A stretch of DNA of 64,000 nucleotides from Calditrichota bacterium (GCA_014359355.1 JACIZP010000177.1:662-64661); one strand, 5' to 3'; shown: positions 4,333 through 64,000, counted from the stretch's first letter. The notes: generated from the sequence alone by a model not told the origin. Numbers and translations are program-made.

Positions 4333-4353
4333 GAAAGGAGTTGAGGGGCGCAT

Positions 4354-12045: not shown

Positions 12046-12090
12046 GGTCATTCTCCTGGGGTAGAGTCTACGGTTACCTTTCCTGAGCTG

Positions 12091-17789: not shown

Positions 17790-17792
17790 CCG

Positions 17793-19028: not shown

Positions 19029-19046
19029 CTCTCCTGGCCCGGTCTG

Positions 19047-19727: not shown

Positions 19728-19786
19728 CTACCACCTCGACAGTTCTGCCTTCCGCAAAGGGACGGCCCCGAAGTCGCCCCGCCCGG

Positions 19787-21072: not shown

Positions 21073-21102
21073 TTGCCACTTCTCCAGCTGTGTCACCTTC
21101 AA

Positions 21103-21564
21103 CTATGGGGAAAGGAGCGTGAACACCTGACTGCGCATGAATTGTCCGTCCAGATAGACCTCCACCCACCAATCACCTGCCGGTGCAGAGGCCGCCGTAT
21201 CCAAGTAGAACCAGGTGACCGCATGCCCGCTGTCGGAGGTCAACTCCACCTCGCGATGGCCCTGGAGCTGCCCCTCGGGGTCGAACCATTTGGCCCCCAC
21301 TGTGTGCGTCTTGTACCAGTTGCCCCACCTGATCCAGAGGTAGACGACGTCATCCACCCGAAACGTGGCAGTCACCAGGACCGGATGCGACTCTTCGTCC
21401 ACCGCGACGCAGGTGAAGCACTCGATGATGTACGGCTCATCCTTGGTGGGCGCCACTACGCCGCCCCCTTCGCCCTCTATTTTCTCGCAACCGGGCAGCC
21501 CGGCCAGCCCTAAGAGGCAAGCAAGGAGGCCAACAATCGAGCCGCGTGCCATTGGCAACACCAT
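21103..21564 (-). CDS. Small lipoprotein, hypothetical (between TolC and adaptor genes)
   Basis: 153 aa; signal peptide ending LAGLPGC (probable lipobox Cys); no recognisable domain. Confidence 0.45.
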   Translation of the reverse strand: MVLPMARGSIVGLLACLLGLAGLPGCEKIEGEGGGVVAPTKDEPYIIECFTCVAVDEESHPVLVTATFRVDDVVYLWIRWGNWYKTHTVGAKWFDPEGQLQGHREVELTSDSGHAVTWFYLDTAASAPAGDWWVEVYLDGQFMRSQVFTLLSP

Positions 21565-21575
21565 GGGAGCCTTTC

Positions 21576-27451: not shown

Positions 27452-27535
27452 TACACGCTGTGAAGCGGGTGGGATGAACGGTATCGGTCGTCACTCTCTG
27501 CTTCAGGGGCACAACCATAAGCAGTGGAGGCTGAG

Positions 27536-30500
27536 ATGGCAGCGAAACGGATACAGGCCAGCACGCTGATCGGAGTTGGTCTCCTCCTGTTCTATACGAC
27601 AGCGGCGGTTGCACAACAGGGCTCCATAGGTAACAGGGCTACCGCCGACCCCGCGTACACCGGGTATGCAGCTTGGATCAAGCTGACCGTGGCGGGGCCC
27701 GCAGGGAACAATTCTCTCAACGACAACTTTGCCGGTGCGAAGGTCGAGATTGACCTGAATATCGACGGCGACAACAATGAAGCCACCAACCCTGGCGACG
27801 TGTACGAAGCCAGTGGCGACGCCGGAGAAATGGTGACTGACCCGCTTGGCTCCGGCGGCGCCTTTGACCAGTACTTCTACGTGCGCATCAAATCCGGCGC
27901 GAACAACCCGTTCCCGGATGGAGTAGGTTACGACACCGACCTCCGTCCGCGCGTGAAATTTGCCGCCAGCGGGTTTCTGCGTGTGGGTGGGGTGCCGATA
28001 CAGACCGAGACCGGCTTTGTGAACGCCACCGACGACATCACCCCCAGGATGCGCAAAATCGAGCACTATGACGACGGTACAGGTCATATGCCCGGTTCTC
28101 CTGGCAATCAGGTGCAGTACGACGGCTACATTGACAAGATCATCATCGAGTGGAGCGAGCCCATGCGCACCAGCAATGTGGCCGCCAGCACAGCCATCTT
28201 CGGTGGCCTCGGCTCCTCGGTGAGCAGCATTGAAGCTACCGGTGCGTGGGCCGACAACAAGCATTTTGTCATGTGGCCCGTGTCCATTTCGCCGAACTCC
28301 GGCATCACCCCAACCCTGTCCTATTACCCCCCACCCAGCAACAGCGACAAATTTGCCAGCGCAACTTTGCAGTACGCCGAGACGCATGCCAAGGTGGTGA
28401 CCGACCGCTCCGGCCCGGCGATTGTCAGCGCGCAGACCAAGCGCGCCACCCGGCGCCAGGCCTTGGCTGCAGCGCTCGCGGCCAAGCGCATCCGCGTGGT
28501 CTTTAGCGAGCCGGTGGCCTTCAACTACATCCAGGGTACTGACTTTACCGTGACCATCAACGGCGTCAACAACCCGGTGGCCAGCATCGTCTCGCCCACC
28601 ACCGCAAACCCACCGACCAATACGTACGAATTCGCCCTGACCAACGACTTTGTCCACGAGGATGTGACCGGAAGCATCTCCTACACGGGGACGATGCTGG
28701 TGCGCGACGTCAGCCCCGACAGCAACTACAACGGCGTGGGGCCCACAAGGACAATCACCGACGGTATTCTCCCCAACATTGTCTCCGTGCGTACCGTTGA
28801 CGGTCTCTCGGCCACCAATGCTGGCGCCAATGGCTGGGGTTACTTGGACTGGGTGGAGGTCACCTTTGACCACACTTACAACGGCATGGACCAGGCCCGC
28901 CTCAGCACTTTGGGCTTCACCGTCACTGGCACCGGTATATTGACCATTGGCGCCACCGGCAGTTGGGCCAGCGCCACCACGTTCCGCATTCCTTTGGTGG
29001 CCACTTCCCCGAAGGTGCCTAATACTGACCTTGTGCCCACGGTGACCTATGTCAACCCGGGGTCGACTACCGGTTTGCGGAGCGCCGTCAACAACGGGTT
29101 GGCCGAGAACTTGCTGGCAACCGATGTGACACCATCCTCGGAAAATGCCTCGCCCGTGCAGATTATCGACGGTGCCGGCCCAGCCCTCATCGAAGCTTAC
29201 ACTGCTGGTGGCAACAGAATCAGGCTCACGTTCAGTGAGAAGGTCAACACGGCCGGTTGGCCCACCACCGAACCGGCCGCCCAGGTGCCTTCCCGCTTCA
29301 AGTGGTTCGTCGGCCTGCGGAACTTTAGTGCGGCCGGAACCAAGGTCTTTTTCACCGGGCTCTCTGGCACCAATCAGGACAATGTCATCTACCTGAACAG
29401 CACCGGGGCCACCTGGACAAAGACCGATAGCGGCTTCGTCAACTTTTATGGGACCAACGTCGTCTACGACGTCGCCACCCCTGCTAACGGGAACCTGCAG
29501 TGGGACGACGACGGCTCCATAGTCGGCTTCACCGGGACCACTTCCGACGTCAAAGTGAAACGTGACAACATCGCCCCTATCCTCCTTGGTTTGTACACGC
29601 AGGACTTTGACGCCGACGGGACGTTAGATCACTACCGCTTCGTGTTCGATCCTCTGTCTCCCATCTTCCCGAAGACGTCGTTCAAGGCGGCAAACTGGAC
29701 GATTGCAGGCTATGACGGACCGAAGTCGGGCATCAGCCTGAACATGAACGTCTACAATCCGGCACACGCGCAGTACAAACCCACGGCCATCAACACCTTT
29801 GGCGATACGGTGGAGGCATACATCTCGTTCAACGAGACTACGGCTGGTGGCCCACCTGCCACCCCGTATGGCGGTGACACAGGGGATGTGCCGGACGTAA
29901 TTGTAGAAGCTGGAAAGGGCTTCGCGGACTGGGCCGACAATGTGATGGCCGCCTTGGGCGAGGGCCTCTCCTTGGAGAGCGATAAGGCTGGCCCGGCCAT
30001 CATGAGCGCCAAGACCATCTCTACAACCACCGTGGAAATCCTCATGAGTGAAAAGGTCCAGGGACTGGACTTGGCCGACTTTGACCTCACCATGGGTTTT
30101 GTCCCGCCGCTGGCCTCGGTGACCCAACCCAGCGACGCTCGTGTGCTGCTGACCGTCGCCCCTTACGCCCAGTGGGCACCCACGCAGACGGGCACCGTTC
30201 GCCTGACCGGGGTCAACAAGATCTATGACGATATCGCCGGCACTAACAACGGCAACATGCAGACTGCCTCCATCGCCGTGATCGATGCCACGGCCAGTTA
30301 CTTCATAGTCAGCCAAGTCTACAAGGAGGGGTCGCAGTTCACCGGTGTGCCGTTTGACATCAAAGTTATCGCCAAGGATTCCCACGGTACCACTGACGTG
30401 AACTTTACGGTACCCATCCAGTTCGCTGCCAACAAGCAGCGGGTGACCCTCCCGACCGGCGTGCAACGCCTGACCAACGGCGAAGGGGTGTTCCAGATCG

Positions 30501-31981
30501 TCTGCTATGACACTACCTCGAACTTGGTGATTACGGTCTACAAGACCACCGATCCCGGGGTGAACGGCTCAACTGAGCCAATAGAGGTGGTGGAAGCGGT
30601 GATCGACGCACCCAACACGCTCACCGTGAAGGACTACAAGGGTGCCGACGGCGAGGGGGACCAGGGTGGTTATGTGACGCTGGTCTGGGACTTTTCGCAG
30701 AACCATCCTGGCATCGGTACGGTCAACATTATCGACTACTACCAGATCTACCGCGTGGTCGAGGGCAAGCTCTTCCATTGGGGCACCGTGCAAGCGACTG
30801 ACCCGCGAAAGAGCGAGGCGGACTCGGTGCGCGTGGTGGTGCCCACCTATGACAATGTGATCTCGGACTTTTACGTGCAGGCTGTCAAGAATCCTCCCCC
30901 GCTCACGGCTGCGGCCCCGCTCTTGCCTGATGAGGACGCCATCCCGCTGCCGGCGGGGTACGTGTTTGCCATGCCGCCGAAGGGCGACAATGGCGAGGTG
31001 ACTGTCGCTGCCGCCATGACTGCTGGGCAGTTGGTGTCGCCGCTCACCAAGGGCACGGGTGGCGCCACTGACGACATCCCGCCGGCAGCCATCACCGAGG
31101 CGGCTATTCGCAAGATTAGTGCGCAGGCGAAGCTGTTCTGGCCAAAGGTCACCAAGGGCATCGATGGCTCGCCGGAGCGTTCGCGGATTACCTATCGCGT
31201 GTATGCGCACCCCAGCAATGCCTTCTTTAACGTTGGAGACCCGGACGCGGTACTTCTGGGTAGCTGCGCAGATACCTTCTTGGTGGTGAACGTCGATGCC
31301 TTGCGGCGGTTCTACATGGTGGTGGCCATGGACGACAACAACATGTCCGGCCCCTCCAACCGCGTCGGCCATTACGGCTTTGCCTTGAACAAAGGCGAGA
31401 CGCGCAAATACACGCACATCTCGCTGCCGCTGATCGATCCGAACATCACCGACGCCAAGTCATTAGCCGCCAGCATCGGCGGTGTGGCTGCGGTGTACAA
31501 GTTGGACCCAGCGACCAACGCCTACACCACGTACTGGCTGCCAGATATGGGTTTGGGCACCAACTTCCCCATCACCCCTGGCATGGCCTGCTTGGTCAAC
31601 CTGAAGAGCGACGCACCCAGCACCTGGTTCATGGTGGGGTCGGTGCCGTACCCAGGCAGCGTTCGTTTCACGCTGGCCAAGACCAAGACGCGTACCTACA
31701 ATGAGATCAGCGTGCCGCTTGACCGTCTGACCCTGACCAACGCCGCACAGCTGGCCGCCAGCATTGGCGGCGTGGAGGCGCTCTACCGGATCGACCCGGC
31801 TACCAACGCCTTCACGCAGTATTGGCTCGTGGCTCAGGGCTTGGGCACGAATTTCCCCTTGAACCCAGGCGAACCGGTGCTCCTGTTGGTGAACCAGTCG
31901 GCTCCCAATCAGTGGCCGGCAGGCAGCATGACCGCTGCGCTCCCTGTGGGCGAACAGCCTGCGGGCGCAAAGGAAGAATGA
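27536..31981 (+). CDS. Giant secreted surface protein (1481 aa) with Ig-like/beta-rich repeats and C-terminal tandem ~90-aa repeat
   Basis: GGAGG RBS 6 nt before ATG 27536; signal peptide (LIGVGLLLFYTTAAVAQQ); Thr/Gly/Asn-rich beta-strand composition; last ~190 aa contain two copies of ISLPLxxxxLTxAxxLAASIGGVxAxYxxDPATNAxTxYWLxxxGLGTNFPxxPG; no T9SS CTD. Confidence 0.6.
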   Translation: MAAKRIQASTLIGVGLLLFYTTAAVAQQGSIGNRATADPAYTGYAAWIKLTVAGPAGNNSLNDNFAGAKVEIDLNIDGDNNEATNPGDVYEASGDAGEMVTDPLGSGGAFDQYFYVRIKSGANNPFPDGVGYDTDLRPRVKFAASGFLRVGGVPIQTETGFVNATDDITPRMRKIEHYDDGTGHMPGSPGNQVQYDGYIDKIIIEWSEPMRTSNVAASTAIFGGLGSSVSSIEATGAWADNKHFVMWPVSISPNSGITPTLSYYPPPSNSDKFASATLQYAETHAKVVTDRSGPAIVSAQTKRATRRQALAAALAAKRIRVVFSEPVAFNYIQGTDFTVTINGVNNPVASIVSPTTANPPTNTYEFALTNDFVHEDVTGSISYTGTMLVRDVSPDSNYNGVGPTRTITDGILPNIVSVRTVDGLSATNAGANGWGYLDWVEVTFDHTYNGMDQARLSTLGFTVTGTGILTIGATGSWASATTFRIPLVATSPKVPNTDLVPTVTYVNPGSTTGLRSAVNNGLAENLLATDVTPSSENASPVQIIDGAGPALIEAYTAGGNRIRLTFSEKVNTAGWPTTEPAAQVPSRFKWFVGLRNFSAAGTKVFFTGLSGTNQDNVIYLNSTGATWTKTDSGFVNFYGTNVVYDVATPANGNLQWDDDGSIVGFTGTTSDVKVKRDNIAPILLGLYTQDFDADGTLDHYRFVFDPLSPIFPKTSFKAANWTIAGYDGPKSGISLNMNVYNPAHAQYKPTAINTFGDTVEAYISFNETTAGGPPATPYGGDTGDVPDVIVEAGKGFADWADNVMAALGEGLSLESDKAGPAIMSAKTISTTTVEILMSEKVQGLDLADFDLTMGFVPPLASVTQPSDARVLLTVAPYAQWAPTQTGTVRLTGVNKIYDDIAGTNNGNMQTASIAVIDATASYFIVSQVYKEGSQFTGVPFDIKVIAKDSHGTTDVNFTVPIQFAANKQRVTLPTGVQRLTNGEGVFQIVCYDTTSNLVITVYKTTDPGVNGSTEPIEVVEAVIDAPNTLTVKDYKGADGEGDQGGYVTLVWDFSQNHPGIGTVNIIDYYQIYRVVEGKLFHWGTVQATDPRKSEADSVRVVVPTYDNVISDFYVQAVKNPPPLTAAAPLLPDEDAIPLPAGYVFAMPPKGDNGEVTVAAAMTAGQLVSPLTKGTGGATDDIPPAAITEAAIRKISAQAKLFWPKVTKGIDGSPERSRITYRVYAHPSNAFFNVGDPDAVLLGSCADTFLVVNVDALRRFYMVVAMDDNNMSGPSNRVGHYGFALNKGETRKYTHISLPLIDPNITDAKSLAASIGGVAAVYKLDPATNAYTTYWLPDMGLGTNFPITPGMACLVNLKSDAPSTWFMVGSVPYPGSVRFTLAKTKTRTYNEISVPLDRLTLTNAAQLAASIGGVEALYRIDPATNAFTQYWLVAQGLGTNFPLNPGEPVLLLVNQSAPNQWPAGSMTAALPVGEQPAGAKEE

Positions 31982-43885: not shown

Positions 43886-44014
43886 CCGCAGGCGTTCCTT
43901 TCTCCTTTTCGCCCGTAACTCGGCAAACTGCTTTTCCCTTGCGTTCGGCCGCCAGCCACGACCGACACTCTGCCTGCCCCGTGGAGCGGTAGCACTCCGC
44001 CCGCCCGTCTGGCC

Positions 44015-44415
44015 TCACTTTTTCTCGTAGGCGTGATGGGCGCGCGAAAAGTGCTCATGCACGACCTTCCACTGGCCGTCGCGCTTGGCGTACACGTGCG
44101 TGCCCCGTCCCTCGATGACCCGCGGCTTGCCCTTCTTGTGCAGCGTCACGGTCCAGTAGAAGCTGACCACCGCCACATCGCCGAGCACCTGCACCTGCGG
44201 CTGGAGGATCTTAAAGTCCACCTTGTCCGCCTGCGTGAGGTAGTACTCGATGGTCTGCCGCAGGGCGCGCAGGCCCTTCAGGCGCGCATGGCGTGTCGAA
44301 GAGAAACCGACGAGTTCCGAGTCAAAGTGCGCCAAAATGGCCTTCACGTCGCCCTGGTTGAAGGCCTTGGCCTGCGCCTTCTCCAGGTCCACCAACGTCT
44401 TCTTGAGGTCTTCCA
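44015..44415 (-). CDS. NTF2-like/SnoaL-like (DUF4440) small protein
   Basis: 133 aa from MEDLKK (AGGAGG RBS); cone-shaped alpha+beta fold pattern. Confidence 0.5.
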
Positions 44416-44693
44416 TGTGCGTTCTCCTCCTGCGCTGGTTTGCAGGCACAAAGGGCCACCGCATGCCGTGCCGCCGCGGAAGCATGCGGTCCCTCTGCGA
44501 TTATCCACATCCCCAGCACGTCGTCAGCGGCCACTCGGCCTTTCGCGCCCTCCGCTACAACGGGGAACGCCGAGTAGGCTTCACTGCGGCCTGCTTGGTC
44601 GCTGCATCCGCCTCACTTCTCGGTCCTTTGGGCAAAGGACCCTTCGACCAAAAGCCCGCCGCGCCATACCGGCATGAAGCTGCCGCTGTCAAT

Positions 44694-44729
44694 ATTGAGC
44701 AAAATTTAGCAAAAAATCAAGACGTTTGT
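44694..44729. repeat. Intergenic motif copy B (AATTTAGCAAAAAAATCAAGACGTTTGTGAGGGTGGC)
   Basis: Matches copy A at 27067-27111; an inverted partial copy TTGCTAAATTTGC sits at 44943-44955 just upstream of the GT9 start. Confidence 0.5.
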
Positions 44730-44975
44730 GAGGGTGGCAAGAAGCACGGGGCTGCTCAGAGCCGAGGGCCCAGCGCGTGGACGGTATGCATGGCACGCCA
44801 GAGGCGTGCGCACCCAGGGCGACACCAATGACGGGCCGGGAGGCCCGCGCACCCCGGGCGCACCCAAGACCACTTCTATTCCCGAGAGGCCGATTGAAGA
44901 AAGGATGTGGCGCCATTTTCCCCTTTGTTTTTGCCTATGGGGTTGCTAAATTTGCCACACCAGCTTTGGAGGGCT

Positions 44976-46172
44976 ATGGCAAGTCTGTTCGACACATTGC
45001 ACCGCCTTCTGCGGCGGCCGCAGATTCACGACGCGCAGCGCAAGGCGAAGGTGCTGCTCTTCCGCGGCCTGCGCAGCTTCTTCCCGGTGTCCACCATGAG
45101 CGTACAGGAGATCGGCCATCTGCGGCGCATCCTCGTGGTGCGCCAGCACAATCAGCTCGGCGACATGCTGTGCGCCACACCGACTTTTCGCCTCCTGCGC
45201 CAGGCTTACCCACACGCGGAAATCACCCTCATCACCAGTCCGGCCAACTACCCGGCGGTGCAGAACAGCATCCGCCTGGACCGCGTGCTGGTGTTCGACA
45301 AGATCGGCTTTGCCAAGCAGCCCCGTCGCTACTGGCACTTTTTGCGCACGCTGCGTTCCCTGCGGCCAGACGTGGCCATTGTCCTGTCCACGGTCTCCAT
45401 GTCGGTGACCTCGGACGTGCTCGCCTATTTGTCGCGCGCCCGCTATCGTCTCGGTCCGGCTGCGATCGACGGGGTGCCCAACACCACGGGCTTTCTCTTC
45501 AACGTGCCGGTCACGCTCAATTGGCGCGAGCAGCCGCATCGCCACCAGGCTTTGCGCAACATGGACATGCTCGGCCCCCTGGGCCTGAGCAGCACCGACC
45601 TGCAGGCGGAGCTCTTCCCCACCGCGGATGAGCAAGCGCGGGCGGCAGAGCTCCTGGCGCGCTTGGGCGCAGTGGTCAAGGTAGGAATTCACCCTGGGGC
45701 GGGCAAGCCGGCAAACCGCTGGCCGGCAGCTCATTTTGCGGCGTTGGCCAATACCTTGGCGCAGCAGTTCGGTGCCCACATCATCGTCTCCGCCGGCCCA
45801 GATGACGGGCAAGTGCTTGCGGAGCTCTTGCCTGCGCTGCAGGCGCCCCACACGTTGTGCCTGAATCGTCCGCTCGGCGAGCTTGCCGCCATCATCGCTG
45901 GCCTGGACGTGATGGTCACCAACGACACCGGGGTCATGCACGTGGCCGGCACGACCCGGGTGCCGCTCATCTCGCTGTTTGGCGCCACGGATCCGGAGCA
46001 ATGGGCTCCCTCGCGGCCCGGAAGCTACTACCTGCAGCGGCCGCGGTTGAGCGACATCAGCGTGGAGGAGGTGGTGGCCCTTGTGAGCAGACTGCTGAGG
46101 GAAACCCAACGCCCGGGAGCGTCTCCCAGGCGCGGGCGCAGGCGCAAGGCGAAAAGGGCCGTGGCCGGCTGA
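44976..46172 (+). CDS. Glycosyltransferase family 9 (ADP-heptose:LPS heptosyltransferase-like)
   Basis: 'RILVVRQHNQLGDMLCATPTFRLLRQAYPHAEITLI' GT9 N-terminal signature and C-terminal 'MVTNDTGVMHVAG'. Confidence 0.75.
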   Translation: MASLFDTLHRLLRRPQIHDAQRKAKVLLFRGLRSFFPVSTMSVQEIGHLRRILVVRQHNQLGDMLCATPTFRLLRQAYPHAEITLITSPANYPAVQNSIRLDRVLVFDKIGFAKQPRRYWHFLRTLRSLRPDVAIVLSTVSMSVTSDVLAYLSRARYRLGPAAIDGVPNTTGFLFNVPVTLNWREQPHRHQALRNMDMLGPLGLSSTDLQAELFPTADEQARAAELLARLGAVVKVGIHPGAGKPANRWPAAHFAALANTLAQQFGAHIIVSAGPDDGQVLAELLPALQAPHTLCLNRPLGELAAIIAGLDVMVTNDTGVMHVAGTTRVPLISLFGATDPEQWAPSRPGSYYLQRPRLSDISVEEVVALVSRLLRETQRPGASPRRGRRRKAKRAVAG

Positions 46173-46303
46173 CCTGGTCGAGGCGGGGGCTGAACCTCGG
46201 GGAGCTTGTCGGAGGCTGGAGTGACGGCCCAATGGGGCTCATGGAGCTGGTTGGGTGAACTTTCGCGTGGGGAGTTACGACTTACTGAAGACAACGGAGG
46301 CAG

Positions 46304-50070: not shown

Positions 50071-53000
50071 CTACAGTCGGCCAGCCAGAACCACCGTGGC
50101 TCTGGCGGTTTCCACGGTACCGGCTGCGGCGTTGAGCGCTTCCAGGTAGACGATGTACACCCCGATACGTGCCTGCTGGCCATGATCGTCCCTGCCGTCC
50201 CACACCACCGCATTGGAGGCGGCCACCGGCTGGTTGCTCGCTAAGAAGCGAATGAGGCGGCCGGTGACATCGTAGATCTTGACGTTCACGGCAGCCGTGG
50301 TCATCGGCAAGGCGAACGAGATGACGGCAAAGTCGTCGCGCCCGTCGCCATCTGGCGAAAAGGGCGAGGGCGAGACGCTGAGCGTGGTGCGCGGCGGTAC
50401 CACCATGGTGAGGACGCTGTTGGCACGGCCTGGCGTCCCCCCGGTCTTGTCCACGCACGAGCTCCAATTGGACTTCAGCTGCGAAGGCAGGCTTGGGTTG
50501 ATTCTTTCGAGCGAGACGCCCGTATCTCCGCCCCAGCTCTGGTCGTAGGCCACACTGTCGATGACCGTGCCCTGGGGGTCGTAAACGACCACGGCGTCGC
50601 CAGTCGCGGAGAGCGCAGGCCATGAGGGTACTACCAGCAGCAGACTTTCGCCGAGCTCGCCCGCCTTTGCTAAGGAAGAGTCTTCGGCAAGCAGCACAAA
50701 GCCGCCGGGCGGCACGAGCAAGAGATTGCTGCTCACCACCCGGCGCTTGGCCAGGTCCGCATCGGAGAAGAGCCACTTCTCCAAGTTTACTGCCGCCTCG
50801 CTGCGATTGTACAGCTCCACCCACTCGCCCATGCCGCTGAGCGGCGCGTACATGATCTCGTTGACCACCAGCGTCCCCCTGGCAAAGCCCACCATCAGTT
50901 CAGCCACGGCGATGTTGTTGGCCGGCCTCATGTCGCCTGCACAGGTCACCAGCACGCCGATCCACATGACGCCAGCCGGGGCTTCGCGCCATTCCACCTC
51001 CACCGACCGGCACTCATCAGGGGCCAGTTGTGCTATGTCGACCGGTTCCCCCAGTCGCTCGCCCGGCGCAAATACCGTATCCCGGTTGGCGTCCCAGAAG
51101 AACTCCACCCGCACGTGCTCGGCGGGCGCCCGACCTTCGTTGCACACCTGGGCCTGAAGCCGCACGCTTTCGCCAACACGAGGTTGCTCGGGGAGGAAGG
51201 AAAGCCCGGCACCAGCCACACCAACGTCCACCGTCAAGGGGCTCACGCTGTTTTCTGTCCCAGGGGTGGCTCCTTCGGGGGCAGTGCTCAGCCGCCAGTT
51301 GGCGCTGTCCTGCGAGCCCCACTCGTAGCGCACCCGCTCCAGGGAAACGCCAGTGCGCATCCCCCAGCGAGAAAAGTAGTGCACGCTGTCCACCACCACG
51401 CCCGCGGGGTCGTACACCCGCACCTCATCCTGGTCATTGTTGAGCGCGGCCCACCCCTGCTTCACTGTCAGCAGGGGCGCAGGAAGCTGGCCGTACTGGA
51501 AGCGCACTACAGAATCGGCGGCGACCACCGCAAAACCACCCACTGGCACGCGCACGTGGGTGGTGCCGAAAAGCCGCGGACCGGAAGTGGCATCGCCCAG
51601 TCCCCAGCCGTAAAGGTCCACCTCGCTAGGTCCGGCATTGTAGAGCTCAACCCACTCACTCTGCCCGGAGAAGGGTGCGTACATAATCTCATTGACCAGC
51701 ACCTGCCCCACGGGAAAGGCCACCACCAATTCCGCGAAACGGCGGTCATTGTCCGGCCGCTGGTCATTTGGGCAGCTCGCCGCCACTGCGATGCTGTGCA
51801 CTCCTGGCGGCACTCCTTCCCAGCGGAAGAGCAAGGTCTGCTTCGCGCCACTGGCCAACTCGCCCACCACCTGTGGCGCATCCAGCCGTTCCGCAGCCGT
51901 CAGCACGGAGTCGCCGTCTGCGTCCCAGTAGCAGCTCACCTCCACGCCGGCCACCGCCTGGCGGCCTACATTGCGCACTGCCGCAGCGATCGTCACCGAT
52001 CCCTGCGCACGAGGCACAAACGGCGCCCACTGAATCGACCCCGCCACCACCTCGACGTCCACCGCCAGGGGACTCACGCTGTTCTCCAGGCCTGGCGTTC
52101 CGCCGCGTGCGTTCACCGCAGCACGCCAATTGCTGGGCAGGTTGGACGGCTCTTCCGCGCGCACCCGTTCCAGGGACACGCCTGTTCGCACCGGCCCCCA
52201 AGAAGCAGCATAAGCCACGCTGTCGATGGTTGCCCCTGTCAGATCGCGAACAACCACCAGGTCGGCGTCGTTGTTGAGGGTCGGCCATTTGCTGCCGATC
52301 GTCAGCAACAGGCCGCCAAATTCCGGAAAGTCCCTCTTCATCGTCGTGTCTTTGGCCACGACCAGGTACCCGCCTGGCGGTACCACGATGTGGCGGTCGG
52401 TGAGGCGCACCAGTGTTCCGACGTTCTCGTCGCTCACCGTCCAGTCATAGACGTCCACACCGCTGTCACGAGGGTTGAATAGTTCTATCCACTCGCACGC
52501 GCCGGACTGGGGTTGGAACATGATCTCATTGATGATGAGGTCTCCGCTCTGGAAAGGCACGCGATACTCCCCGTACGCCATGTCGTCGGAGGTGTCAGGA
52601 TCCGCCACCTCAACCAGTCGAGCAATGATGCGGCTGAGCCCAGGGGCAGCGGCTCCCAGCTCGACGCTGCACAGCAAAGAGTCGCCGCCTGCCAGGCCCG
52701 CCAAGGGACAGGAGAGGCCCACCAGCTCCTGCGCGCCGGGCTTGAGGTCATAGTCCGCGTCGCGATAGAAGGCGACCATGCCGCTCTCCGCCGTATCCAT
52801 GCCGTGATTGTAGACCCACACCGAGGCGCGGACCGTTTGCCCATAGCGAGGCTGTGGCGGCTCAAACTGCACCCCGGCAGAACCAAGTCCAACATGCTTG
52901 TCGCGCGGACGGATGCTATTCGGGGCATTGGGCGTACCGCCCAACGGCGCCCGGCAGGGACCCCAGTTCTTGCGACTGTTGGTTGGCCAGTCTGGCCTCA

Positions 53001-54312
53001 CCCGCTCTATGGACACGCCCGTCTCGCCACCCCAAGAGGCGAAGTAGTACAGGCTGTCCACCGAAAAGCCTGCGGCATCCCAAATCACCACTGCATCGCT
53101 GGTGTTGTTAAGAGCAGGCCAGCCCCGTCCCGGCACAAACACCGGGCCGGACAAAGTGGGAAAGAGCGCCCGAACCAGGGTGTCCTCTGCGAGCAGGGCG
53201 AAGCCGCCAGGAGGGAGGAGCGCCTTTGTGCTGGTGACCGTAACTCGTGTAGCAGTGCGGGAATCGCTTAGCGACCACAGCCGCAGGTCGATCACCTCCG
53301 GGCTGCGGTTTAGGATCTCCACCCACTCGGGCTCCCCTGCACTTGGCCGGTACATGACTTCGTTGACCACCACCTCGCCGGGCCACACGCCGACGCCAAG
53401 GGTCACCCTCTGCTGGTCGTTCTCCGCGGAGCTGTCGCCTTCGCCCACCACCCGCGCAAGTAGCTGGTGCACTCCAGCCGGCACCTCATGCCAGGTGAAC
53501 CGTGCCACCGCACTGTCGCCTGGCTGCAGAGAGGGGCTGACAAACGGCGCTTCCAGGAGTTCCTCTTCCCTGCCGAAACCGTCCTCGTCGCGATCCAAGT
53601 ACAGGGCAATCTGGCAGCTGGCGATTTCCTTGCGGCCGGCGTTCAGCGCGACCACCGTAAGCTGAACGCTCTGGCCGCGTCGGACACGAGACGGCGACCA
53701 GACCACGCTCTTGAGCGCCAGGTCTATGGCTCCCGCGCTCACGCTGTTGGGCGCGCCAGGCGTACCCCCGAGCACCCGGCTGTTCGCCCAGTTGGCAGGT
53801 GCGTCGCCGGCTTCGAGATCGATCTTCTCGTCAGAGTACCCCTGAGGGTTGTCCAGGGTGTAGCGATAGCGGCTCACCGTGTCGCCCCTGGCGTTGGTGA
53901 GAATCACCGGTTCGGGAATGGTGTTTGACCACCCGCCGCTGCCAAAGGCGCCGTCGTCAATTTTCACAATCAATGCTTCGGCAGGGATGACGCCGTCGTA
54001 GGTGGTGGAGTTGCCGAAGTAGCTGCCGTCGAGGATGACGGCGAACTGCCGCGGCCGGAGGATGAGCCCCCACCCTGCGTCGATAATCTTGTCCAACTCG
54101 ATGCTGTCGCCAACGGCCCAACCGGCGAGGTTCACAGAATCCGTCGCACTGAGGTTGAATATTTCCACGTACTCGTCGTGGGCCTCGTTGGTGGCGGGAT
54201 CGAACATGACCTCTGACACGGTCACCTGCCCCAGGCTGCGACCTGGGCTTGCGGCCAAGATAAGGAAGGCTCCAATAACGAAGAAGCGGCGATAAAACTT
54301 TGACTCAGCCAC
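50071..54312 (-). CDS. Giant secreted protein with five lamin-tail domains (LTD) alternating with CARDB/Ig-like domains and C-terminal FlgD-Ig-like domain
   Basis: GTG start 54312 with purine-rich RBS (ORF track extends upstream into purA region); signal peptide; five repeats of NE(I/V)M(F/Y)xPxxGxxEW(I/V)ELxN...D(L/V)xxWxLxD...PPGG(F/Y)xV...ALNNxxDxVxxxDxxGxxxDSVxY...WG...GVSLERV; C-terminal 'PFSPDGDGRDD...VKIYDVTGRLIR' FlgD-Ig-like. Confidence 0.7.
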   Translation of the reverse strand: MAESKFYRRFFVIGAFLILAASPGRSLGQVTVSEVMFDPATNEAHDEYVEIFNLSATDSVNLAGWAVGDSIELDKIIDAGWGLILRPRQFAVILDGSYFGNSTTYDGVIPAEALIVKIDDGAFGSGGWSNTIPEPVILTNARGDTVSRYRYTLDNPQGYSDEKIDLEAGDAPANWANSRVLGGTPGAPNSVSAGAIDLALKSVVWSPSRVRRGQSVQLTVVALNAGRKEIASCQIALYLDRDEDGFGREEELLEAPFVSPSLQPGDSAVARFTWHEVPAGVHQLLARVVGEGDSSAENDQQRVTLGVGVWPGEVVVNEVMYRPSAGEPEWVEILNRSPEVIDLRLWSLSDSRTATRVTVTSTKALLPPGGFALLAEDTLVRALFPTLSGPVFVPGRGWPALNNTSDAVVIWDAAGFSVDSLYYFASWGGETGVSIERVRPDWPTNSRKNWGPCRAPLGGTPNAPNSIRPRDKHVGLGSAGVQFEPPQPRYGQTVRASVWVYNHGMDTAESGMVAFYRDADYDLKPGAQELVGLSCPLAGLAGGDSLLCSVELGAAAPGLSRIIARLVEVADPDTSDDMAYGEYRVPFQSGDLIINEIMFQPQSGACEWIELFNPRDSGVDVYDWTVSDENVGTLVRLTDRHIVVPPGGYLVVAKDTTMKRDFPEFGGLLLTIGSKWPTLNNDADLVVVRDLTGATIDSVAYAASWGPVRTGVSLERVRAEEPSNLPSNWRAAVNARGGTPGLENSVSPLAVDVEVVAGSIQWAPFVPRAQGSVTIAAAVRNVGRQAVAGVEVSCYWDADGDSVLTAAERLDAPQVVGELASGAKQTLLFRWEGVPPGVHSIAVAASCPNDQRPDNDRRFAELVVAFPVGQVLVNEIMYAPFSGQSEWVELYNAGPSEVDLYGWGLGDATSGPRLFGTTHVRVPVGGFAVVAADSVVRFQYGQLPAPLLTVKQGWAALNNDQDEVRVYDPAGVVVDSVHYFSRWGMRTGVSLERVRYEWGSQDSANWRLSTAPEGATPGTENSVSPLTVDVGVAGAGLSFLPEQPRVGESVRLQAQVCNEGRAPAEHVRVEFFWDANRDTVFAPGERLGEPVDIAQLAPDECRSVEVEWREAPAGVMWIGVLVTCAGDMRPANNIAVAELMVGFARGTLVVNEIMYAPLSGMGEWVELYNRSEAAVNLEKWLFSDADLAKRRVVSSNLLLVPPGGFVLLAEDSSLAKAGELGESLLLVVPSWPALSATGDAVVVYDPQGTVIDSVAYDQSWGGDTGVSLERINPSLPSQLKSNWSSCVDKTGGTPGRANSVLTMVVPPRTTLSVSPSPFSPDGDGRDDFAVISFALPMTTAAVNVKIYDVTGRLIRFLASNQPVAASNAVVWDGRDDHGQQARIGVYIVYLEALNAAAGTVETARATVVLAGRL

Positions 54313-54365
54313 TGCCCTTCTCCCCGCTCGTGCTGAACGGTAGCTGGTCTGTAGCGATGATGCGA

Positions 54366-55640
<1,275 letters not shown>

Positions 55641-59275: not shown

Positions 59276-59304
59276 AATATAGACCATTCCCACCTAAAAG
59301 TCAA
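59276..59304 (-). promoter_or_regulatory. Sigma70 promoter TTGACT-17-TATATT for secD-secF-STAS operon
   Basis: Minus-strand -35 at 59304..59299, 17-nt spacer, -10 at 59281..59276, ~80 nt upstream of secD ATG, between citF stop and secD. Confidence 0.55.
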
Positions 59305-59325
59305 ACGGAAAAAGGCGAGGCCGGC

Positions 59326-60876
59326 TCACGTCTTCGGCACCAGCTGGCGCACTGCGTCGATGATTGTACCATCCCGAAACTCGATGAGCGCCACGATGCG
59401 CTCGGTGAACGTGGGCTTTTCCGGCTGCCCTGTCATGTCGATCGCCATGCGGTAGAGCTTGTCGATGGGCACGATGGGCAGACTGCTCCGCTTCAAGCGC
59501 TGCAGCAGGTCTTTCCGCCGTGGGTTGATGGCAATGCCGCGCTCGGTGACCACCACGTCGATCATCTCGCCTGGCGCAGTAACGGTCACCACCTTGTCCA
59601 CGATGATCGGCACCCGCCCACGCACCAGCGGCGCGGTGATGATGGTGACCTCTGCGTCGGCGGCGTCTGTGAACCCGCCGATGCCGTGCAGCAACCACCC
59701 GTCGGAGTGGGTGTTCACGTTGACGTTGAAATCAAGGTCGATTTCCGTGGCACCCAGCACCGAAACCTTGACCATCTGGGCAAAACAACCCTTGGTGTGG
59801 TAGTTGTAGGAGACGAAAGGATTGGTCTCGATGTGCCGCGGGTTGTCGCGCAGGGACTGCACTCCAGCCAAGTCAAAGCTCTGGCCGTCGAGAATGTAGC
59901 GGGTGAGGCCCTGGTTGAGCAGGTCCACCATGTACTGCGTCGATCCGCCTCGCACAAAATCGGCGACGACGCCGGCGCGGGCCATGTGCTCGGCCATGAA
60001 CTGCACGAACGCAAGGGAGACACCTCCGGCCCCAGCCTGAAAAGAGAAGTGCGGCTCGTGCATGATGCCGCTATCCACCACCAGCTGCGCGGCGTACTTG
60101 GCGATGAGCAGCCGCGTGGGGCTGCGCGTGATGACCGTGGTGCCGGAAACGATGCGCGCAGGGTCGCCGATGGCATCCACCTGGACGACATAGTCGACGT
60201 TGCCGCCCTGGATGCTCCATGGGTAACAGGGGAAGGGCACAAGGTTATCGGTGACCACCACCACCTTGTCGGCATAAAGGGAATCGGCCAAGGCAAAGCC
60301 GAGCGGGCCGCAGGCCGATTTGCCATAGACGCCGTTGGCGTTGCCGTGGGCATCGGCAGCCGGTGCGGCAATGAAGGCAACATCGATGTGCAGGTCGCCA
60401 TCCTGGATGGCGCGATAGCGGCCGCCGTGGGAGCGGAGCACGCACACGCTCTTCATCTTCCCCAACGAGCACGCCCTGCCCACCGGCCCGTTCATTGAGC
60501 CCTCCACGCGGCGCACCACGCCCTTTTCGATGTGGCGCACCAACGGCTCGTGGCAGGGGAAGAGCGCAGACGGGGCGACCACCAGGTCTTTGAGGCCTCT
60601 GCGCGCCAGCTTGTCCATGACCATGTTCACCACATAGTCGCCATCCCGCAAGTGGTGATGGAAGGAGACCGTCATGCCGTCCTTGATGCCGCAGGCATCG
60701 ATGGCGTCGTCCAGCGACTTGAGCAGTTTGTTGCGGTAGTCGCTGGCTGCACGAATCAGCGCGCCAGCAGTGCGTCCCCCACCTTTGTCGGCATGAGCCC
60801 CTTGGAATGGTCTAAGCTTTCTCCCTTCAATCTCTGTGGGCACTAACCGCCCAACGGCGTTCTCTACCAGGTCCAT
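59326..60876 (-). CDS. citF: Citrate lyase alpha subunit (citrate CoA-transferase)
   Basis: Start at MDLVENAVGRLVPTEIEGRKL; 'LDDAIDACGIKDGMTVSFHHHLRDGD' and overall ~516 aa match CitF family. Confidence 0.75.
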   Translation of the reverse strand: MDLVENAVGRLVPTEIEGRKLRPFQGAHADKGGGRTAGALIRAASDYRNKLLKSLDDAIDACGIKDGMTVSFHHHLRDGDYVVNMVMDKLARRGLKDLVVAPSALFPCHEPLVRHIEKGVVRRVEGSMNGPVGRACSLGKMKSVCVLRSHGGRYRAIQDGDLHIDVAFIAAPAADAHGNANGVYGKSACGPLGFALADSLYADKVVVVTDNLVPFPCYPWSIQGGNVDYVVQVDAIGDPARIVSGTTVITRSPTRLLIAKYAAQLVVDSGIMHEPHFSFQAGAGGVSLAFVQFMAEHMARAGVVADFVRGGSTQYMVDLLNQGLTRYILDGQSFDLAGVQSLRDNPRHIETNPFVSYNYHTKGCFAQMVKVSVLGATEIDLDFNVNVNTHSDGWLLHGIGGFTDAADAEVTIITAPLVRGRVPIIVDKVVTVTAPGEMIDVVVTERGIAINPRRKDLLQRLKRSSLPIVPIDKLYRMAIDMTGQPEKPTFTERIVALIEFRDGTIIDAVRQLVPKT

Positions 60877-60895
60877 TGCCAAACCTCGTGGTTCC

Positions 60896-62083
60896 TCAGT
60901 CGATAAGGCCAAGGGCCTTGGCCAATTGCAGCGTACGCTTTGCCCGTGCCACCACGGGCGCATCGATCATCTTTGTGCCGAGACTGGCGACACCCGCACC
61001 GCGGCGCTCTGCCTCCTCCAACGCAGCAATCACTTGCTGCGCATGCGCAATCCGCTCCGGAGTCGGCGCAAAGGCGCGATGGATGGGCTCAATCTGCGCT
61101 GGGTGGATGACCCCTTTACCTTCAAAGCCCAAGGCGATGGCCTCTTCTGTGCTCTTGACCAAACCGTCGACGTCGGCAACATCGGAGAACACGGTGTCGA
61201 TGGCCTGCACCCGTGCGGCCTTTGCCGCCAGCACCAGCAGGCTGCGCGCCACAAAGCTCTCCTTGCCCTCAACGGTGCGCTCTGCGCCGATGTCTGCGGT
61301 AAAATCCTCCGCTCCGAAGCAAAGGGCGACCACCCGCTGACTGGCAGAGGCGATCTGGTATGCGTTGAGCACGCCTTTGGCGCTTTCGATGAGCGGCATG
61401 AGCCAAATCTGATAGCGAAGGCGATGCTCTCTTTCGAGGGCAGCGACTCTCTCCTCGACCTCCAGCACGCTTTCCGCTGCCTCGCACTTGGGGATGAGGA
61501 TGGTATCAGGTTGGGCCGGTACCACCATCTCTAAGTCGGCTGCGCCAAATTCTGTGGCCAAGGGGTTGATGCGCACGATGCGCTCGGCAGCACCAAAGTC
61601 CACCGCCAGCAGGCTGTTGCGCACCAACACGCGGGCGGCCGCCTTGTCTGCGGGCGCTACCGAGTCCTCAAGGTCCAGAATGACGCTGTCCGCCCCAAAG
61701 AGTCCTGCGTTGAGCATCAGGTCTGGATTGTTGCCGGGCAGATAGAGGCGCGTGCGCCGTAGGCGATCTTTGGGTACCTGTCTCCGCTTGATCCGCCGCT
61801 CCGGCCAGACGCCCAGCCCTTCGACAGGCCAAAGGGCGCGCACCCCCGCCTCCACGCGAGCCTGAATGACGTGGTCTAAGGCGCCCCTGTCGTCTACCGT
61901 CAGGGAGGCATGACGCACGCCCAAAGCCTCGAGGGTAGAGAGAATGGTGGCACGGATTTGTTGGCCAAAGGTGCCCGCCACCGAGCTGACCAGGTCGAGC
62001 CGGATGCCACCGCGTGTCCGTCGCTCGATGGTCAGCAGCAGGTCGCTCTTGTCACTCCTTCCGACTTGGATCTTCTCTGCCAT
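60896..62083 (-). CDS. Fused citrate lyase acyl-carrier (CitD, gamma) + citrate lyase beta/citryl-CoA lyase (CitE) protein
   Basis: Residues ~10-85 'SDKSDLLLTIERRTRGGIRLDL...IRATILSTLEALGVRHASLTVDDRGALDHVIQARVEAGV' align with CitD incl. VDDKGALD block; residues ~110-395 'RRTRLYLPGNNPDLMLNAGLFGADSVILDLEDSVAPADKAAAR...' HpcH/HpaI-CitE fold; single continuous frame. Confidence 0.65.
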   Translation of the reverse strand: MAEKIQVGRSDKSDLLLTIERRTRGGIRLDLVSSVAGTFGQQIRATILSTLEALGVRHASLTVDDRGALDHVIQARVEAGVRALWPVEGLGVWPERRIKRRQVPKDRLRRTRLYLPGNNPDLMLNAGLFGADSVILDLEDSVAPADKAAARVLVRNSLLAVDFGAAERIVRINPLATEFGAADLEMVVPAQPDTILIPKCEAAESVLEVEERVAALEREHRLRYQIWLMPLIESAKGVLNAYQIASASQRVVALCFGAEDFTADIGAERTVEGKESFVARSLLVLAAKAARVQAIDTVFSDVADVDGLVKSTEEAIALGFEGKGVIHPAQIEPIHRAFAPTPERIAHAQQVIAALEEAERRGAGVASLGTKMIDAPVVARAKRTLQLAKALGLID

Positions 62084-62121
62084 ATGTTGTCCTCAACACC
62101 ACAGAGCCTCAACGATTCCGT

Positions 62122-62706
62122 TCACAACAAGCTGGTGACCAACTCCGCCTTGGGGGCTGGAATCACCACCTTGCGCATGAGCAAGCCCTTGCGCTGTACC
62201 ACTGCCGCGCCTGCCTCCACTGCCGCCCTGGCTGCCGCCACCTCTCCCGTGAGGGTCACGAACGACTTGCCGCCAAGTCCCACGGCCAGACGCACCTCGA
62301 TGAGGGTCACCTTGGCTGCCTTGGCCGCGGCATCGGCCGCTTGAATGCTGGAAGCAACCGAAAAGGTCTCGATGATACCCAGCGCCTCGACTTGTTCAAC
62401 TGCGGAGGTCGCGTTGATTGCCGGGAATACGCTCTGGTGGACGCGCGGCAGGACCATTTCGTCGACGACCGTTTCGCCACCTCTGGTCACGCCGGCGTTC
62501 ACGCTGCTCTGCACGGCGGCGACATCGCCACGCACCAGGCAGATATACTTGCCAGGGCAGACCGTCTTGGCCACCACCAGCTCCACCTCGCTCACCTTGA
62601 GCATGGCGTCGGCTGCCTCGATGCCCACGGCGATGCTGTTGAACTCCACCAGACCTATGCAGTCACGCGCCGCTTGCGTCATCATCCCTCTGCCACTTCG
62701 GTTCAC
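62122..62706 (-). CDS. Bacterial microcompartment shell protein, tandem BMC-domain (PduT-like BMC-T)
   Basis: Two BMC domains: 'IGLVEFNSIAVGIEAADAMLKVSEVELVVAKTVCPGKYICLVRGDVAAVQSSVNAG' and 'LGIIETFSVASSIQAADAAAKAAKVTLIEVRLAVGLGGKSFVTLTGEVAAARAAVEAGA'; conserved Cys in KTVCPGKY as in PduT (4Fe-4S site); start may be internal ATG 62682; GTGA overlap with upstream gene. Confidence 0.8.
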   Translation of the reverse strand: MNRSGRGMMTQAARDCIGLVEFNSIAVGIEAADAMLKVSEVELVVAKTVCPGKYICLVRGDVAAVQSSVNAGVTRGGETVVDEMVLPRVHQSVFPAINATSAVEQVEALGIIETFSVASSIQAADAAAKAAKVTLIEVRLAVGLGGKSFVTLTGEVAAARAAVEAGAAVVQRKGLLMRKVVIPAPKAELVTSLL

Positions 62707-63995
62707 GATGCTTCGATGCAGACCATTTCCTCATCCACTTCTGCCACACGGCCAGAGATGGAGGCGTGCACCCGGGCGCTCACCTCGTCTGGGTGGCAAT
62801 CGCCGATGAGTTGCCCAACAACTACCTGCTGGCCGCGCGTTACCACCGGTCGTGCTGGGGCCCCTGCGTGTTGCTTGAGGCGGATGCGCACCCGTTGCGG
62901 GGCCACGGCATCTTCCCAGTAGCGCGCCGGACGGGCATAGGGCGTGAGCTGGAACCGCCCCATCAAACGCGAGGTGGGAATGCGTCGACTGCCCAGGGGC
63001 ACGCGCGCCTTGGTCTCGCGTGGCGCGGGCGCCTGCACCCCTCCACTGCGCAGAGCACGCTTCAACTCCCTGTTCACCAGGCGCGGCGACAACCCCATGG
63101 GACAGGCGTATTCGCAGGCCCCGCACTCTGAGCAGAGCAGGGCCATGCGCGCCACCTCGCTTTTGGCATCCAGGCCCAAGGCCATAGTCCGCATCACTCG
63201 ATGCGGCTCCAAGTGGTGCCCCAGCAGGTAGCGATTGCACGTCTCCGTGCACAATACACACTGCGTGCAAGCAGACCTCGCGTTGCGCAACTGGTGGGCA
63301 ACGCTCTGCGTGCGCGCCTGGACGCAGGGGTGCGCCAAGGGGAGCATAATTACCGCCGCGGTGGTCTTGTCAATGGGGGCCTCGGGATCCGTGGTTAGCG
63401 TCCCCATCATGACCCCGCCCATGAAAAACGCGGGGGCTTCGCACTGCGTGCCGCCGCAGAGCGACAAGAGCTCCCGTACCGTGGTGCCCACAGGCGCACG
63501 CACCACCTTCGGCTGCTGCACACAGCCGCCCACCGTCAGGGTACGGTGCGTGACTGGCTCCCCTTGCCACGCAGCAGCCACATTCCGGAGCGTCTCCACG
63601 TTTTGCACCAGCACACCCACGTGGACCGGCAGCCCCCCTTCGGGCACTAGCCTCCCGGTGGCAAGGGCCACCACCTCATGCTCGTCACCCGCCGGGTAGG
63701 CGTCAGGAAGCTCGACTACCTCCACGCCCTCGCGCCACGCAGCAATCAAGTGCCGGTTCTTTTTCTTGAGAGCGATGGCGAGCCTCTGCGCACCTGTTGC
63801 CTGGGCGATGAGCCGCAGCCCCCTGAGCACTTGCTGCCCCTCGACCCGCAAGACCTCCTGGTCGTTGCACAGAAGAGGCTCACATTCCGCAGCGTTGGCA
63901 ATCACCCACTCCACCCGGTGGGCGAACTTGTGGTGCGTAGGAAATCCTCCGCCTCCACCGCCAACCACACCTGCAGCAAAGACCTTTTGCGCCAA
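62703..63995 (-). CDS. PduS-like RnfC-family flavoprotein with two 4Fe-4S ferredoxin motifs (5' end probably outside window)
   Basis: 'AAGVVGGGGGGFPTHHKF...VIANAAECEPLLCNDQ' (RnfC/PduS NADH-binding + SLBB), 'CTQCVLCTETC' and 'CSECGACEYACP' ferredoxin motifs; ORF reaches window edge. Confidence 0.7.
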   Translation of the reverse strand: MAQKVFAAGVVGGGGGGFPTHHKFAHRVEWVIANAAECEPLLCNDQEVLRVEGQQVLRGLRLIAQATGAQRLAIALKKKNRHLIAAWREGVEVVELPDAYPAGDEHEVVALATGRLVPEGGLPVHVGVLVQNVETLRNVAAAWQGEPVTHRTLTVGGCVQQPKVVRAPVGTTVRELLSLCGGTQCEAPAFFMGGVMMGTLTTDPEAPIDKTTAAVIMLPLAHPCVQARTQSVAHQLRNARSACTQCVLCTETCNRYLLGHHLEPHRVMRTMALGLDAKSEVARMALLCSECGACEYACPMGLSPRLVNRELKRALRSGGVQAPAPRETKARVPLGSRRIPTSRLMGRFQLTPYARPARYWEDAVAPQRVRIRLKQHAGAPARPVVTRGQQVVVGQLIGDCHPDEVSARVHASISGRVAEVDEEMVCIEAS

Positions 63996-64000
63996 AGAAC

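Follow-up and report, generated by a model that had tools for sequence, protein, structure and literature searches.

The last 4.7 kb of a 64,000-nucleotide (nt) stretch of DNA from a Calditrichota bacterium (GCA_014359355.1, JACIZP010000177.1:662-64661), which in its full length is called the window here, carry four tightly spaced genes on the minus strand in the order PduS-like, PduT-like, CitD-CitE fusion (CitDE), and CitF. An earlier note, made from the sequence alone, had proposed that this locus may be a new type of bacterial microcompartment (BMC) locus or a BMC-associated citrate/oxaloacetate module. We instead favor, with a probability of about 0.6, the explanation that the PduS-PduT pair is a known satellite module, termed MNdh/BMC-T^SE, that lies beside an independent citrate lyase of the cytosol, CitDE-CitF, and probably shares a transcript with it. 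A new BMC type was not supported: no further shell genes were found nearby, the adjacency of the pair to citrate lyase was not conserved, and neither citrate lyase protein possessed an encapsulation peptide. The second proposal fared slightly better, in that the locus does not appear to be a citrate microcompartment but the finding of this gene order a second time, in Acidobacteriota, lends a little support to an association of some kind.

According to this satellite-module explanation, the pair would occupy a satellite position in a KSB1 (Zhuqueibacterota, Oleimicrobiaceae-like) genome, and other shell genes, if any, would be located elsewhere. A mobile two-gene module would have moved into a conserved, co-directional array of housekeeping genes, directly upstream of an older CitDE-CitF operon, and would now probably be transcribed together with that operon. 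The citrate lyase would act in the cytosol, cleaving citrate to oxaloacetate and acetate; it would not be encapsulated, nor would it serve as a BMC signature enzyme. Regarding the host, the 90%-identity clusters to which the window proteins belong include members labelled KSB1 and Candidatus Oleimicrobiaceae.

Gene identities were determined by profile hidden Markov model searches (Pfam and NCBIfam) of the translated open reading frames (ORFs) of the window. All four genes were confirmed to be real and to have been named correctly in the earlier note, which had described a tandem-BMC protein with an Fe-S cysteine, an RnfC-family protein, a CitD-CitE fusion, and citF, with the pair and the fusion on the same strand within 40 nt of each other; only small corrections to start sites were needed (Table 1). 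The PduT-like protein also matched eut_PduT (TIGR02526) at 6e-37, under the cut-off of that model, and is 100% identical to a 186-amino acid database protein, MBC7186897.1. The GTGA overlap that had been taken as translational coupling is present in the sequence, where an alternative in-frame GTG at 62706 overlaps the PduS stop, but the database twin and all homologues start at the ATG at 62682, 20 nt past that stop. The CitF start is most likely the ATG at 60876, not 60963, which gives 516 amino acids as in its relatives. Within CitDE, a citrate lyase acyl-carrier-like domain occupies residues 1 to approximately 90 and a citryl-(ACP/CoA) lyase beta domain occupies residues 107 to 392 (ACP, acyl carrier protein); the fusion scored 68 bits against TIGR01608 (cut-off 63.5) and 317 bits against TIGR01588, short of its cut-off of 443. 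Relatives of the PduS-like protein have 435 amino acids, so approximately 5 N-terminal codons are missing at the window edge, and essentially none of the four-gene cluster should remain beyond nt 64000.

Table 1. Features of the PduS-PduT-CitDE-CitF locus in window coordinates
Feature	Position	Strand	Evidence
PduS-like / MNdh flavo-iron-sulfur NADH dehydrogenase	62703..64000, past window edge	-	Complex1_51K 7e-36, SLBB, Fer4_17 3e-15, RnfC_N 3e-16
PduT-like tandem-BMC shell protein (BMC-T^SE), 186 amino acids	62122..62682	-	PF00936 twice, 5e-46
PduT-CitDE spacer, 38 nt, with GAGGA resembling a ribosome-binding site and no terminator-like hairpin	62084..62121	-	sequence and terminator scan
CitD-CitE fusion, 395 amino acids	60896..62083	-	PF06857 (ACP) 8e-20 and PF03328 (HpcH_HpaI) 4e-61
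CitF, citrate lyase alpha subunit / citrate CoA(ACP)-transferase, 516 amino acids	59326..60876	-	PF04223 5e-161; TIGR01584 583 bits, cut-off 501
Terminator-like hairpin and T-run directly after the citF stop	59315..59329	-	pattern scan, consensus match only
Sigma-70-like promoter TTGACT-17-TATATT, 10/12 matches, ahead of secD	59276..59304	-	pattern scan, consensus match only

The PduS-PduT pair corresponds closely to a published module. MNdh is an NADH dehydrogenase with FMN and two [4Fe-4S] clusters that docks on a tandem-BMC shell trimer with a [4Fe-4S] cluster in its pore; it has been proposed, with biochemical support, that lumenal NADH is oxidized and that the electrons leave the shell through the three Fe-S clusters, which regenerates NAD+ (Sutter et al. 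2024, PNAS, PMC11626177). The domains of MNdh are PF01512, PF10531, a 4Fe-4S dicluster, and PF13375, the last being permuted to the C-terminus in comparison to RnfC/NuoF, and a BMC-T^S protein with a CP(G/S)K motif adjoins MNdh in 97% of loci (PMC11626177). The PduS-like protein of the window has the same order, namely Complex1_51K, SLBB, two [4Fe-4S] sites, and a C-terminal RnfC_N, at residues 6-140, 154-198, 242-303, and 362-424, respectively. Alignment to RnfC (7ZC6_C) placed query residues 369-420 on RnfC 33-83 and query residues 7-300 on RnfC 129-416, which is a circular permutation. The C-terminal RnfC_N was considered as a possible new architecture and rejected, being the published MNdh/PduS permutation. 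The translation contains the motif GGGGGGFPTH (residues 12-21) and two CxxCxxCxxxC motifs, CTQCVLCTETC and CSECGACEYACP, and the protein shares 46% identity, across its whole length, with PduS of the EUT locus of Desulforamulus reducens.

The adjacent PduT-like protein has its best solved relatives in 3NWG, 3PAC, and 3N79 (PduT), and the cysteine within its VCPGKY motif aligned with the pore cysteine of the PduT structures (ICPGKF in 3PAC; also 3N79). This cysteine (C42) was invariant across 20 homologues, as were the lysines at the edge (K29 and K121) and the P79/V81/H82 motif. The four-domain permuted order, the cofactor motifs, the adjacent BMC-T gene, and the CP(G/S)K motif are thus all in place, and these are all of the features of MNdh/BMC-T^SE that can be assessed from sequence. 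At the genome level, the module is expected to accompany a metabolosome with an aldehyde dehydrogenase, neither of which was found in the 64 kb of the window. By analogy with the characterized complex, we infer that the window pair would function in NAD+ recycling.

Placement of the module apart from other shell genes has precedent. A satellite locus is one that has shell gene(s) of one type, with enzymes optional, distal from the main locus in the same genome (Axen 2014 / Sutter 2021). The occurrence of MNdh/BMC-T^SE correlates little with either phylogeny or the type of BMC, and the module is often found in satellite loci (PVM, 18/20; ACI, 5/7) (PMC11626177), and the catalogue of Sutter et al. 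2021 records "PduS/T homolog pairs" in FRAG1 (24 loci), FRAG6, FRAG7, ACI, and HO. The same catalogue lists FRAG3, MIC4, and SPU3 BMCs in Calditrichaeota and KSB1, describes FRAG-type BMCs as having no known function or signature enzyme, and shows shell genes of Melioribacter spread over five loci. The window presents the satellite picture locally, with one BMC-T and one MNdh and no further shell gene. It resembles the satellite copies of the PVM, ACI, HO, and FRAG types in its permuted four-domain enzyme, in its adjacent CPGK-bearing BMC-T, in its separation from other shell genes, and in its occurrence in the FCB group and candidate phyla; it differs in that the pair lies in a probable transcription unit with citrate lyase, a neighbor unrecorded in the catalogue. 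The terms "citrate" and pfam04223 were absent from the text and stored supplements of the BMC catalogue, which agrees with the view taken in the earlier note that citrate lyase neighbors none of the catalogued BMC types. Likewise, literature searches turned up citrate lyase and BMCs together only as incidental co-mentions, and the papers on KSB1/Zhuqueibacterota and their supplements made no mention of BMC genes or citrate lyase.

The flanks contained no microcompartment locus. The PduT-like gene is the sole BMC-domain gene in the window, which therefore falls short of a BMC main locus as defined by Sutter 2021, and a Pfam scan of the remaining window genes detected no BMC, citC, citX, or citG families. 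Flanks beyond the window were read from a syntenic relative (L001/L002; PduT 91%, CitDE 85%, and CitF 94% identical) to 10 kb on either side. When every protein encoded in the D. reducens EUT locus was used as a tblastn query, no BMC-H, EutN, aldehyde dehydrogenase, phosphotransacylase, or EutABC was detected in the window or in L001/L002, and no match to EutN_CcmL was obtained in either. Upstream of PduS, L001 carries Amidase_3, a rhomboid protein, an outer-membrane beta-barrel protein, a kinase, a radical-SAM protein, QueH, and an acyltransferase. The expectation that shell, aldehyde dehydrogenase, or citC/citX/citG genes might lie just past nt 64000 was therefore not borne out, since the relative carries amidase, rhomboid, and other housekeeping genes there. 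Downstream of CitF, SecD, SecF, STAS, PurA, and a giant LTD-repeat protein follow in L001, and the window is identical in order; the 1480-amino acid ORF at window 50071-54513 (-) is syntenic with this LTD-repeat/FlgD_ig protein. As a separate observation, PduS (window 62703-63995; L001 8671-9978) is only 69% identical between the two genomes, far below the values for PduT, CitDE, and CitF given above. PduS may be evolving much faster than its neighbors, or it may have been exchanged.

Neither citrate lyase protein showed a sign of being BMC cargo. CitF aligned end to end with CitF of Streptococcus mutans (2HJ0), query residues 4-513 corresponding to chain residues 2-512, with no terminal extension. 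CitDE was the shortest of 7 homologues and had no extra segment compared to homologues without PduS/PduT neighbors (P0131, P0133). Both proteins agree in length and in their ends with homologues that do not adjoin PduS/PduT. Encapsulation-peptide extensions, for which the earlier note had suggested checking the N-termini of CitF and CitDE, were thus found neither at the N- or C-termini nor in the linker of either protein when compared to such homologues. Fusion of CitD to CitE is not specific to this locus, as it was present in all 120 best homologues.

The CitD portion is itself unusual. In Klebsiella pneumoniae and Escherichia coli, Ser14 of CitD carries the 2'-(5''-phosphoribosyl)-3'-dephospho-CoA prosthetic group. 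The canonical Ser14 (motif E-S-[GS]-D) aligned, ungapped in both BLAST and MAFFT, with Lys12 of the window CitDE (codon 62047-62049, minus strand). A lysine occupied this position in 118 of 120 members of the fused family (P0121-P0240), followed by serine in 56 and by glycine in 58, and the acidobacterial CitD described below (L071) has an arginine there. No tblastn match (E<=0.01, E. coli proteins) to citC, citX, or citG was found in the window or in any fetched locus, although these genes could be located in another part of the genome. Homologues of CitF, CitE, and CitD are all present as in a classical citrate lyase, and the serine is not. Because of the lysine and the lack of citC/citX/citG nearby, the "ACP-dependent citrate cleavage" assigned in the earlier note is uncertain for this enzyme. 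These sequence features suggest that the fused CitD-CitE family may lack the phosphoribosyl-dephospho-CoA group and may use free acetyl-CoA and citryl-CoA.

Comparison with relatives in KSB1 showed that the adjacency of PduS-PduT to CitDE-CitF is not conserved within this phylum. In five loci reached through protein look-ups of this closer clade (L137-L141; PduT 67-74% identical), the pair was located between a GlgC-like gene and a peptidase M28 or acetyltransferase gene, and there was no citrate lyase. Another KSB1 locus (L145; CitDE 69% identical) has kept the backbone of rhomboid, Amidase_3, a slot, CitDE, CitF, SecD, SecF, STAS, PurA, and onward to the LTD protein; its slot (3253-4542) is filled by a glutamate dehydrogenase gene, and in the window the same slot is occupied by PduS-PduT. 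In L142-144 (66% identical), CitDE-CitF follows a phosphoribosyltransferase gene and a 500-nt gap, SecDF and PurA lie downstream, and no PduS or PduT was found within 10 kb. Retention of the backbone without the pair suggests that CitDE-CitF is the older resident and that PduS-PduT is a recent arrival in the sublineage of the window.

A broader survey comprised 80 species-level genome loci and 50 metagenome loci with PduT homologues, all of which, among the matches listed, were no more than 63% identical. PduS lay directly upstream of PduT almost everywhere in these 130 loci. Full EUT-like or other BMC loci surrounded the pair only in Bacillota loci and some metagenome contigs. In 74 loci the pair was outside full BMC loci, in Bryobacterales/Terriglobia, Ignavibacteria/Melioribacteraceae, Bacteroidota, Zixibacteria, and KSB1, and for most of the surveyed loci (L007-L136), in which PduT generally lies at about 10001-10550, the pair had no other BMC gene within 10 kb. 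A downstream neighbor could be called in 67 of the 74 isolated-pair loci and fell into 52 different families, which indicates that the module relocates often; from its sequence contexts, PduS-PduT would be a self-contained mobile module. A conserved third partner of isolated pairs was sought by clustering of flanking ORFs and rejected; the recurring neighbors (SpoIIE phosphatase, peptidase M64, ClpB, ABC ATPase, SDR, and FloA) represent lineage-specific synteny or generic families. Separately, six Acidobacteriota loci (L005/L006 8290-8661 and 4 others) share a conserved ORF of approximately 123-133 amino acids, without a Pfam match, that precedes PduS by 17 nt in the same direction and may encode a third, lineage-specific part of the module there.

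Several points weigh against our explanation. The order PduS-PduT-CitDE-CitF, in the same orientation, was also found in an Acidobacteriota metagenome-assembled genome (L071; 1 of the 80 genome loci), in which PduS and CitD are broken by frameshifts, and the arrangement was intact in two further loci (L147 and L148) reached by a search with the L071 CitF and through an 86%-identical relative. CitDE was downstream of the pair in 2 of approximately 52 distinct contexts, compared to approximately 0.015 expected by chance, a figure that is our own rough and partly post hoc calculation, taking the target as one gene in a few thousand and assuming one CitDE per genome. In the window, the gaps between PduT and CitDE (38 nt) and between CitDE and CitF (19 nt) are short, and a pattern scan found no terminator-like site between PduT and CitDE, the sole such site following citF. 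With this 38-nt gap and the hairpin after citF, which is the likely 3' end of the unit, the four genes are probably one transcript, as judged from pattern scans. Finally, the satellite status of the pair, which presumes a main BMC locus elsewhere, is an inference drawn from 64 kb of the genome. Short gaps are nevertheless weak evidence of shared function, because the equally tight 25-nt gap between PduS and the amidase gene in L001 is also part of this compact co-directional array.

The acidobacterial arrangement did not derive from that of KSB1 or vice versa as far as the proteins indicate. The L071 PduT shares 77-81% identity with its acidobacterial counterparts and 55% with that of the window, and the L071 CitF is 53% identical to the window CitF, from which we take the acidobacterial case to be an independent juxtaposition. 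Transfer of a four-gene cassette between KSB1 and Acidobacteriota was accordingly considered and rejected, each PduT grouping with its own phylum and CitF being 53% identical. The surroundings of the acidobacterial genes were also recorded (L147 4878-17132, L148 5039-17134, L071 4835-17057). The cluster begins with a divergent citrate (Si)-synthase and an AMP-binding/GNAT giant protein, continues with PduS, PduT, CitDE, and CitF, and ends with an HDIG protein, a homoaconitase-like fused aconitase, a (homo)isocitrate dehydrogenase, a PrpD-family protein, and BrnQ.

These findings leave more than one scenario to be weighed. The two gene pairs could be functionally coupled without encapsulation, MNdh/BMC-T^SE and CitDE-CitF being co-expressed for one redox task or within one anaerobic regulon; as a speculative example, oxaloacetate derived from citrate and reduced by way of malate and fumarate to succinate could be a cytosolic sink for electrons exported from a metabolosome. 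This scenario has the better standing of the alternatives and is still considerably less probable than a satellite module beside an independent enzyme. The identical order and orientation in two independent lineages (the window with L001 and L002; L071 with L147 and L148), the retention of that order between acidobacterial species whose CitF proteins are 86% identical, the excess over the chance estimate, and the probable single transcript in the window all speak for it. However, the adjacency was absent from all other sampled KSB1 relatives and from approximately 120 other PduS/PduT loci, the citrate lyase reaction has no redox step, the chance estimate carries the reservations given with it, and the acidobacterial neighbors are tricarboxylate enzymes (citrate synthase, homoaconitase-like, (homo)isocitrate dehydrogenase, and PrpD-like), unlike the context in KSB1. 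We regard the recurrence as genuine but as a thin and rather doubtful hint of a functional or regulatory link. It is conceivable, at a similarly low likelihood, that KSB1 and Acidobacteriota independently recruited the pair, at least twice in all, to an operon containing a serine-less CitDE-CitF, and that this reflects a real partnership, either an electron-sink link or a shell-independent redox role beside a possibly CoA-dependent lyase.

A shell-independent role can also be considered in its own right, with the BMC-T trimer being merely a carrier of a [4Fe-4S] cluster and no microcompartment being built. The large share of sampled pairs lacking another BMC gene within 10 kb on either side, the soluble and active state of the published complex once purified (PMC11626177), and the lack of another shell gene in 64 kb of this genome would fit such a role, but we consider it unlikely. 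In the catalogue, such pairs accompany main loci as satellites, as in Melioribacter; the shell-edge motifs (the D-x-x-x-K lysines, K29 and K121, and PRVH) do not vary among the window protein and its homologues, as expected of a protein that tiles a shell; and the MIC4, SPU3, and FRAG3 types are on record for KSB1 and Calditrichaeota. Least probable is that citrate lyase is the encapsulated signature enzyme of a new type of microcompartment. Although a shell protein does adjoin citrate lyase in a probable common transcript, the adjacency recurs in Acidobacteriota, and neither a function nor a signature enzyme is known for FRAG-type BMCs, this scenario was largely refuted by the flanks. No BMC-H or BMC-P was near any of the five loci with the arrangement, CitDE and CitF have no extension at either end or in the linker, the pathway has no aldehyde intermediate, aldehyde dehydrogenase, or phosphotransacylase, and close relatives have the same CitDE-CitF without the pair. 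Taken together, these considerations are most consistent with a satellite MNdh/BMC-T^SE module that came to lie beside an independent cytosolic citrate lyase.

The locus was also compared with known systems. PduS and PduT of the Salmonella and Citrobacter PDU systems are homologous to the window proteins, with 3N79 and 3PAC matching at 1e-44 to 1e-46 and the pore cysteine aligned, and PduS shares the GxGxxG motif and the two CxxCxxCxxxC motifs; unlike in those systems, no B12-dependent diol dehydratase or any pdu gene lies near the window pair, which is not in a 20-gene BMC operon. The EUT2-type locus of D. reducens MI-1 (L003) has the pair in the same order, PduS and then PduT, with PduT approximately 65% identical in addition to the PduS similarity noted above. 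In contrast to the window, its pair is located between EutN and EutQ in a full locus with EutABC, BMC-H, BMC-P, aldehyde dehydrogenase, and phosphotransacylase. For the enzyme, a close parallel is IALB_1146/1147 of Ignavibacterium album, also of the FCB group. This ATP-independent citrate lyase is encoded by two genes, CitF and a fusion of the gamma and beta subunits, and has no adjacent citC, citX, or citG; its fusion has the order CitE-CitD, whereas the window has CitD and then CitE, and no PduS/PduT neighbor was reported for it (Liu et al. 2012, PMC3362086). In comparison to citCDEFXG of E. coli and Klebsiella, CitF passes the equivalog cut-off, the CitE and CitD domains are recognizable, and residues 10-81 of E. 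coli CitD align ungapped; the window differs in its fused gamma and beta subunits, in the lysine in place of Ser14, and in having no citC, citX, citG, or citT in the neighborhood.

Other features of the window were noted at a distance from this locus. A cluster of the MacB efflux type at 16542-22964 (-) encodes two MacB_PCD/FtsX permeases, an ABC ATPase, an HlyD-family adaptor, and an outer-membrane efflux protein; next come genes for a STAS protein and a pentapeptide-repeat protein. Two long ORFs had no Pfam match: one of 1485 amino acids at 27524-31981 (+), followed by a 390-amino acid protein with a type IX secretion system sorting tail, and one of 1034 amino acids at 8947-12051 (-), beside a TonB-dependent receptor. 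The region 43900-46300 has only two long ORFs, 44033..44677 (+) and 44946..46232 (-), with third-position GC of 0.62-0.67 compared to approximately 0.8 elsewhere and no Pfam match.

A shell gene beside an enzyme does not amount to a new microcompartment type, and recognizing the pair as a mobile housekeeping module that turns up in many unrelated contexts averts that false lead. The interest of this locus lies in the recurrent adjacency and in the serine-less CitD family, not in the locus as first described. If the pairing of the module with CitDE-CitF is non-random, it would offer a handle on the cytosolic acceptor pathway for the electrons of MNdh/BMC-T^SE and on the role of the fragmented (FRAG) BMCs of FCB-group bacteria. 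The replacement of Ser14 by lysine across the fused family, together with the lack of citC, citX, and citG nearby, suggests that many "citrate lyase ACP" proteins of candidate phyla may not use the classical prosthetic group. If this is true, metabolic reconstructions would be affected, including proposals of a reverse tricarboxylic acid cycle driven by citrate lyase.

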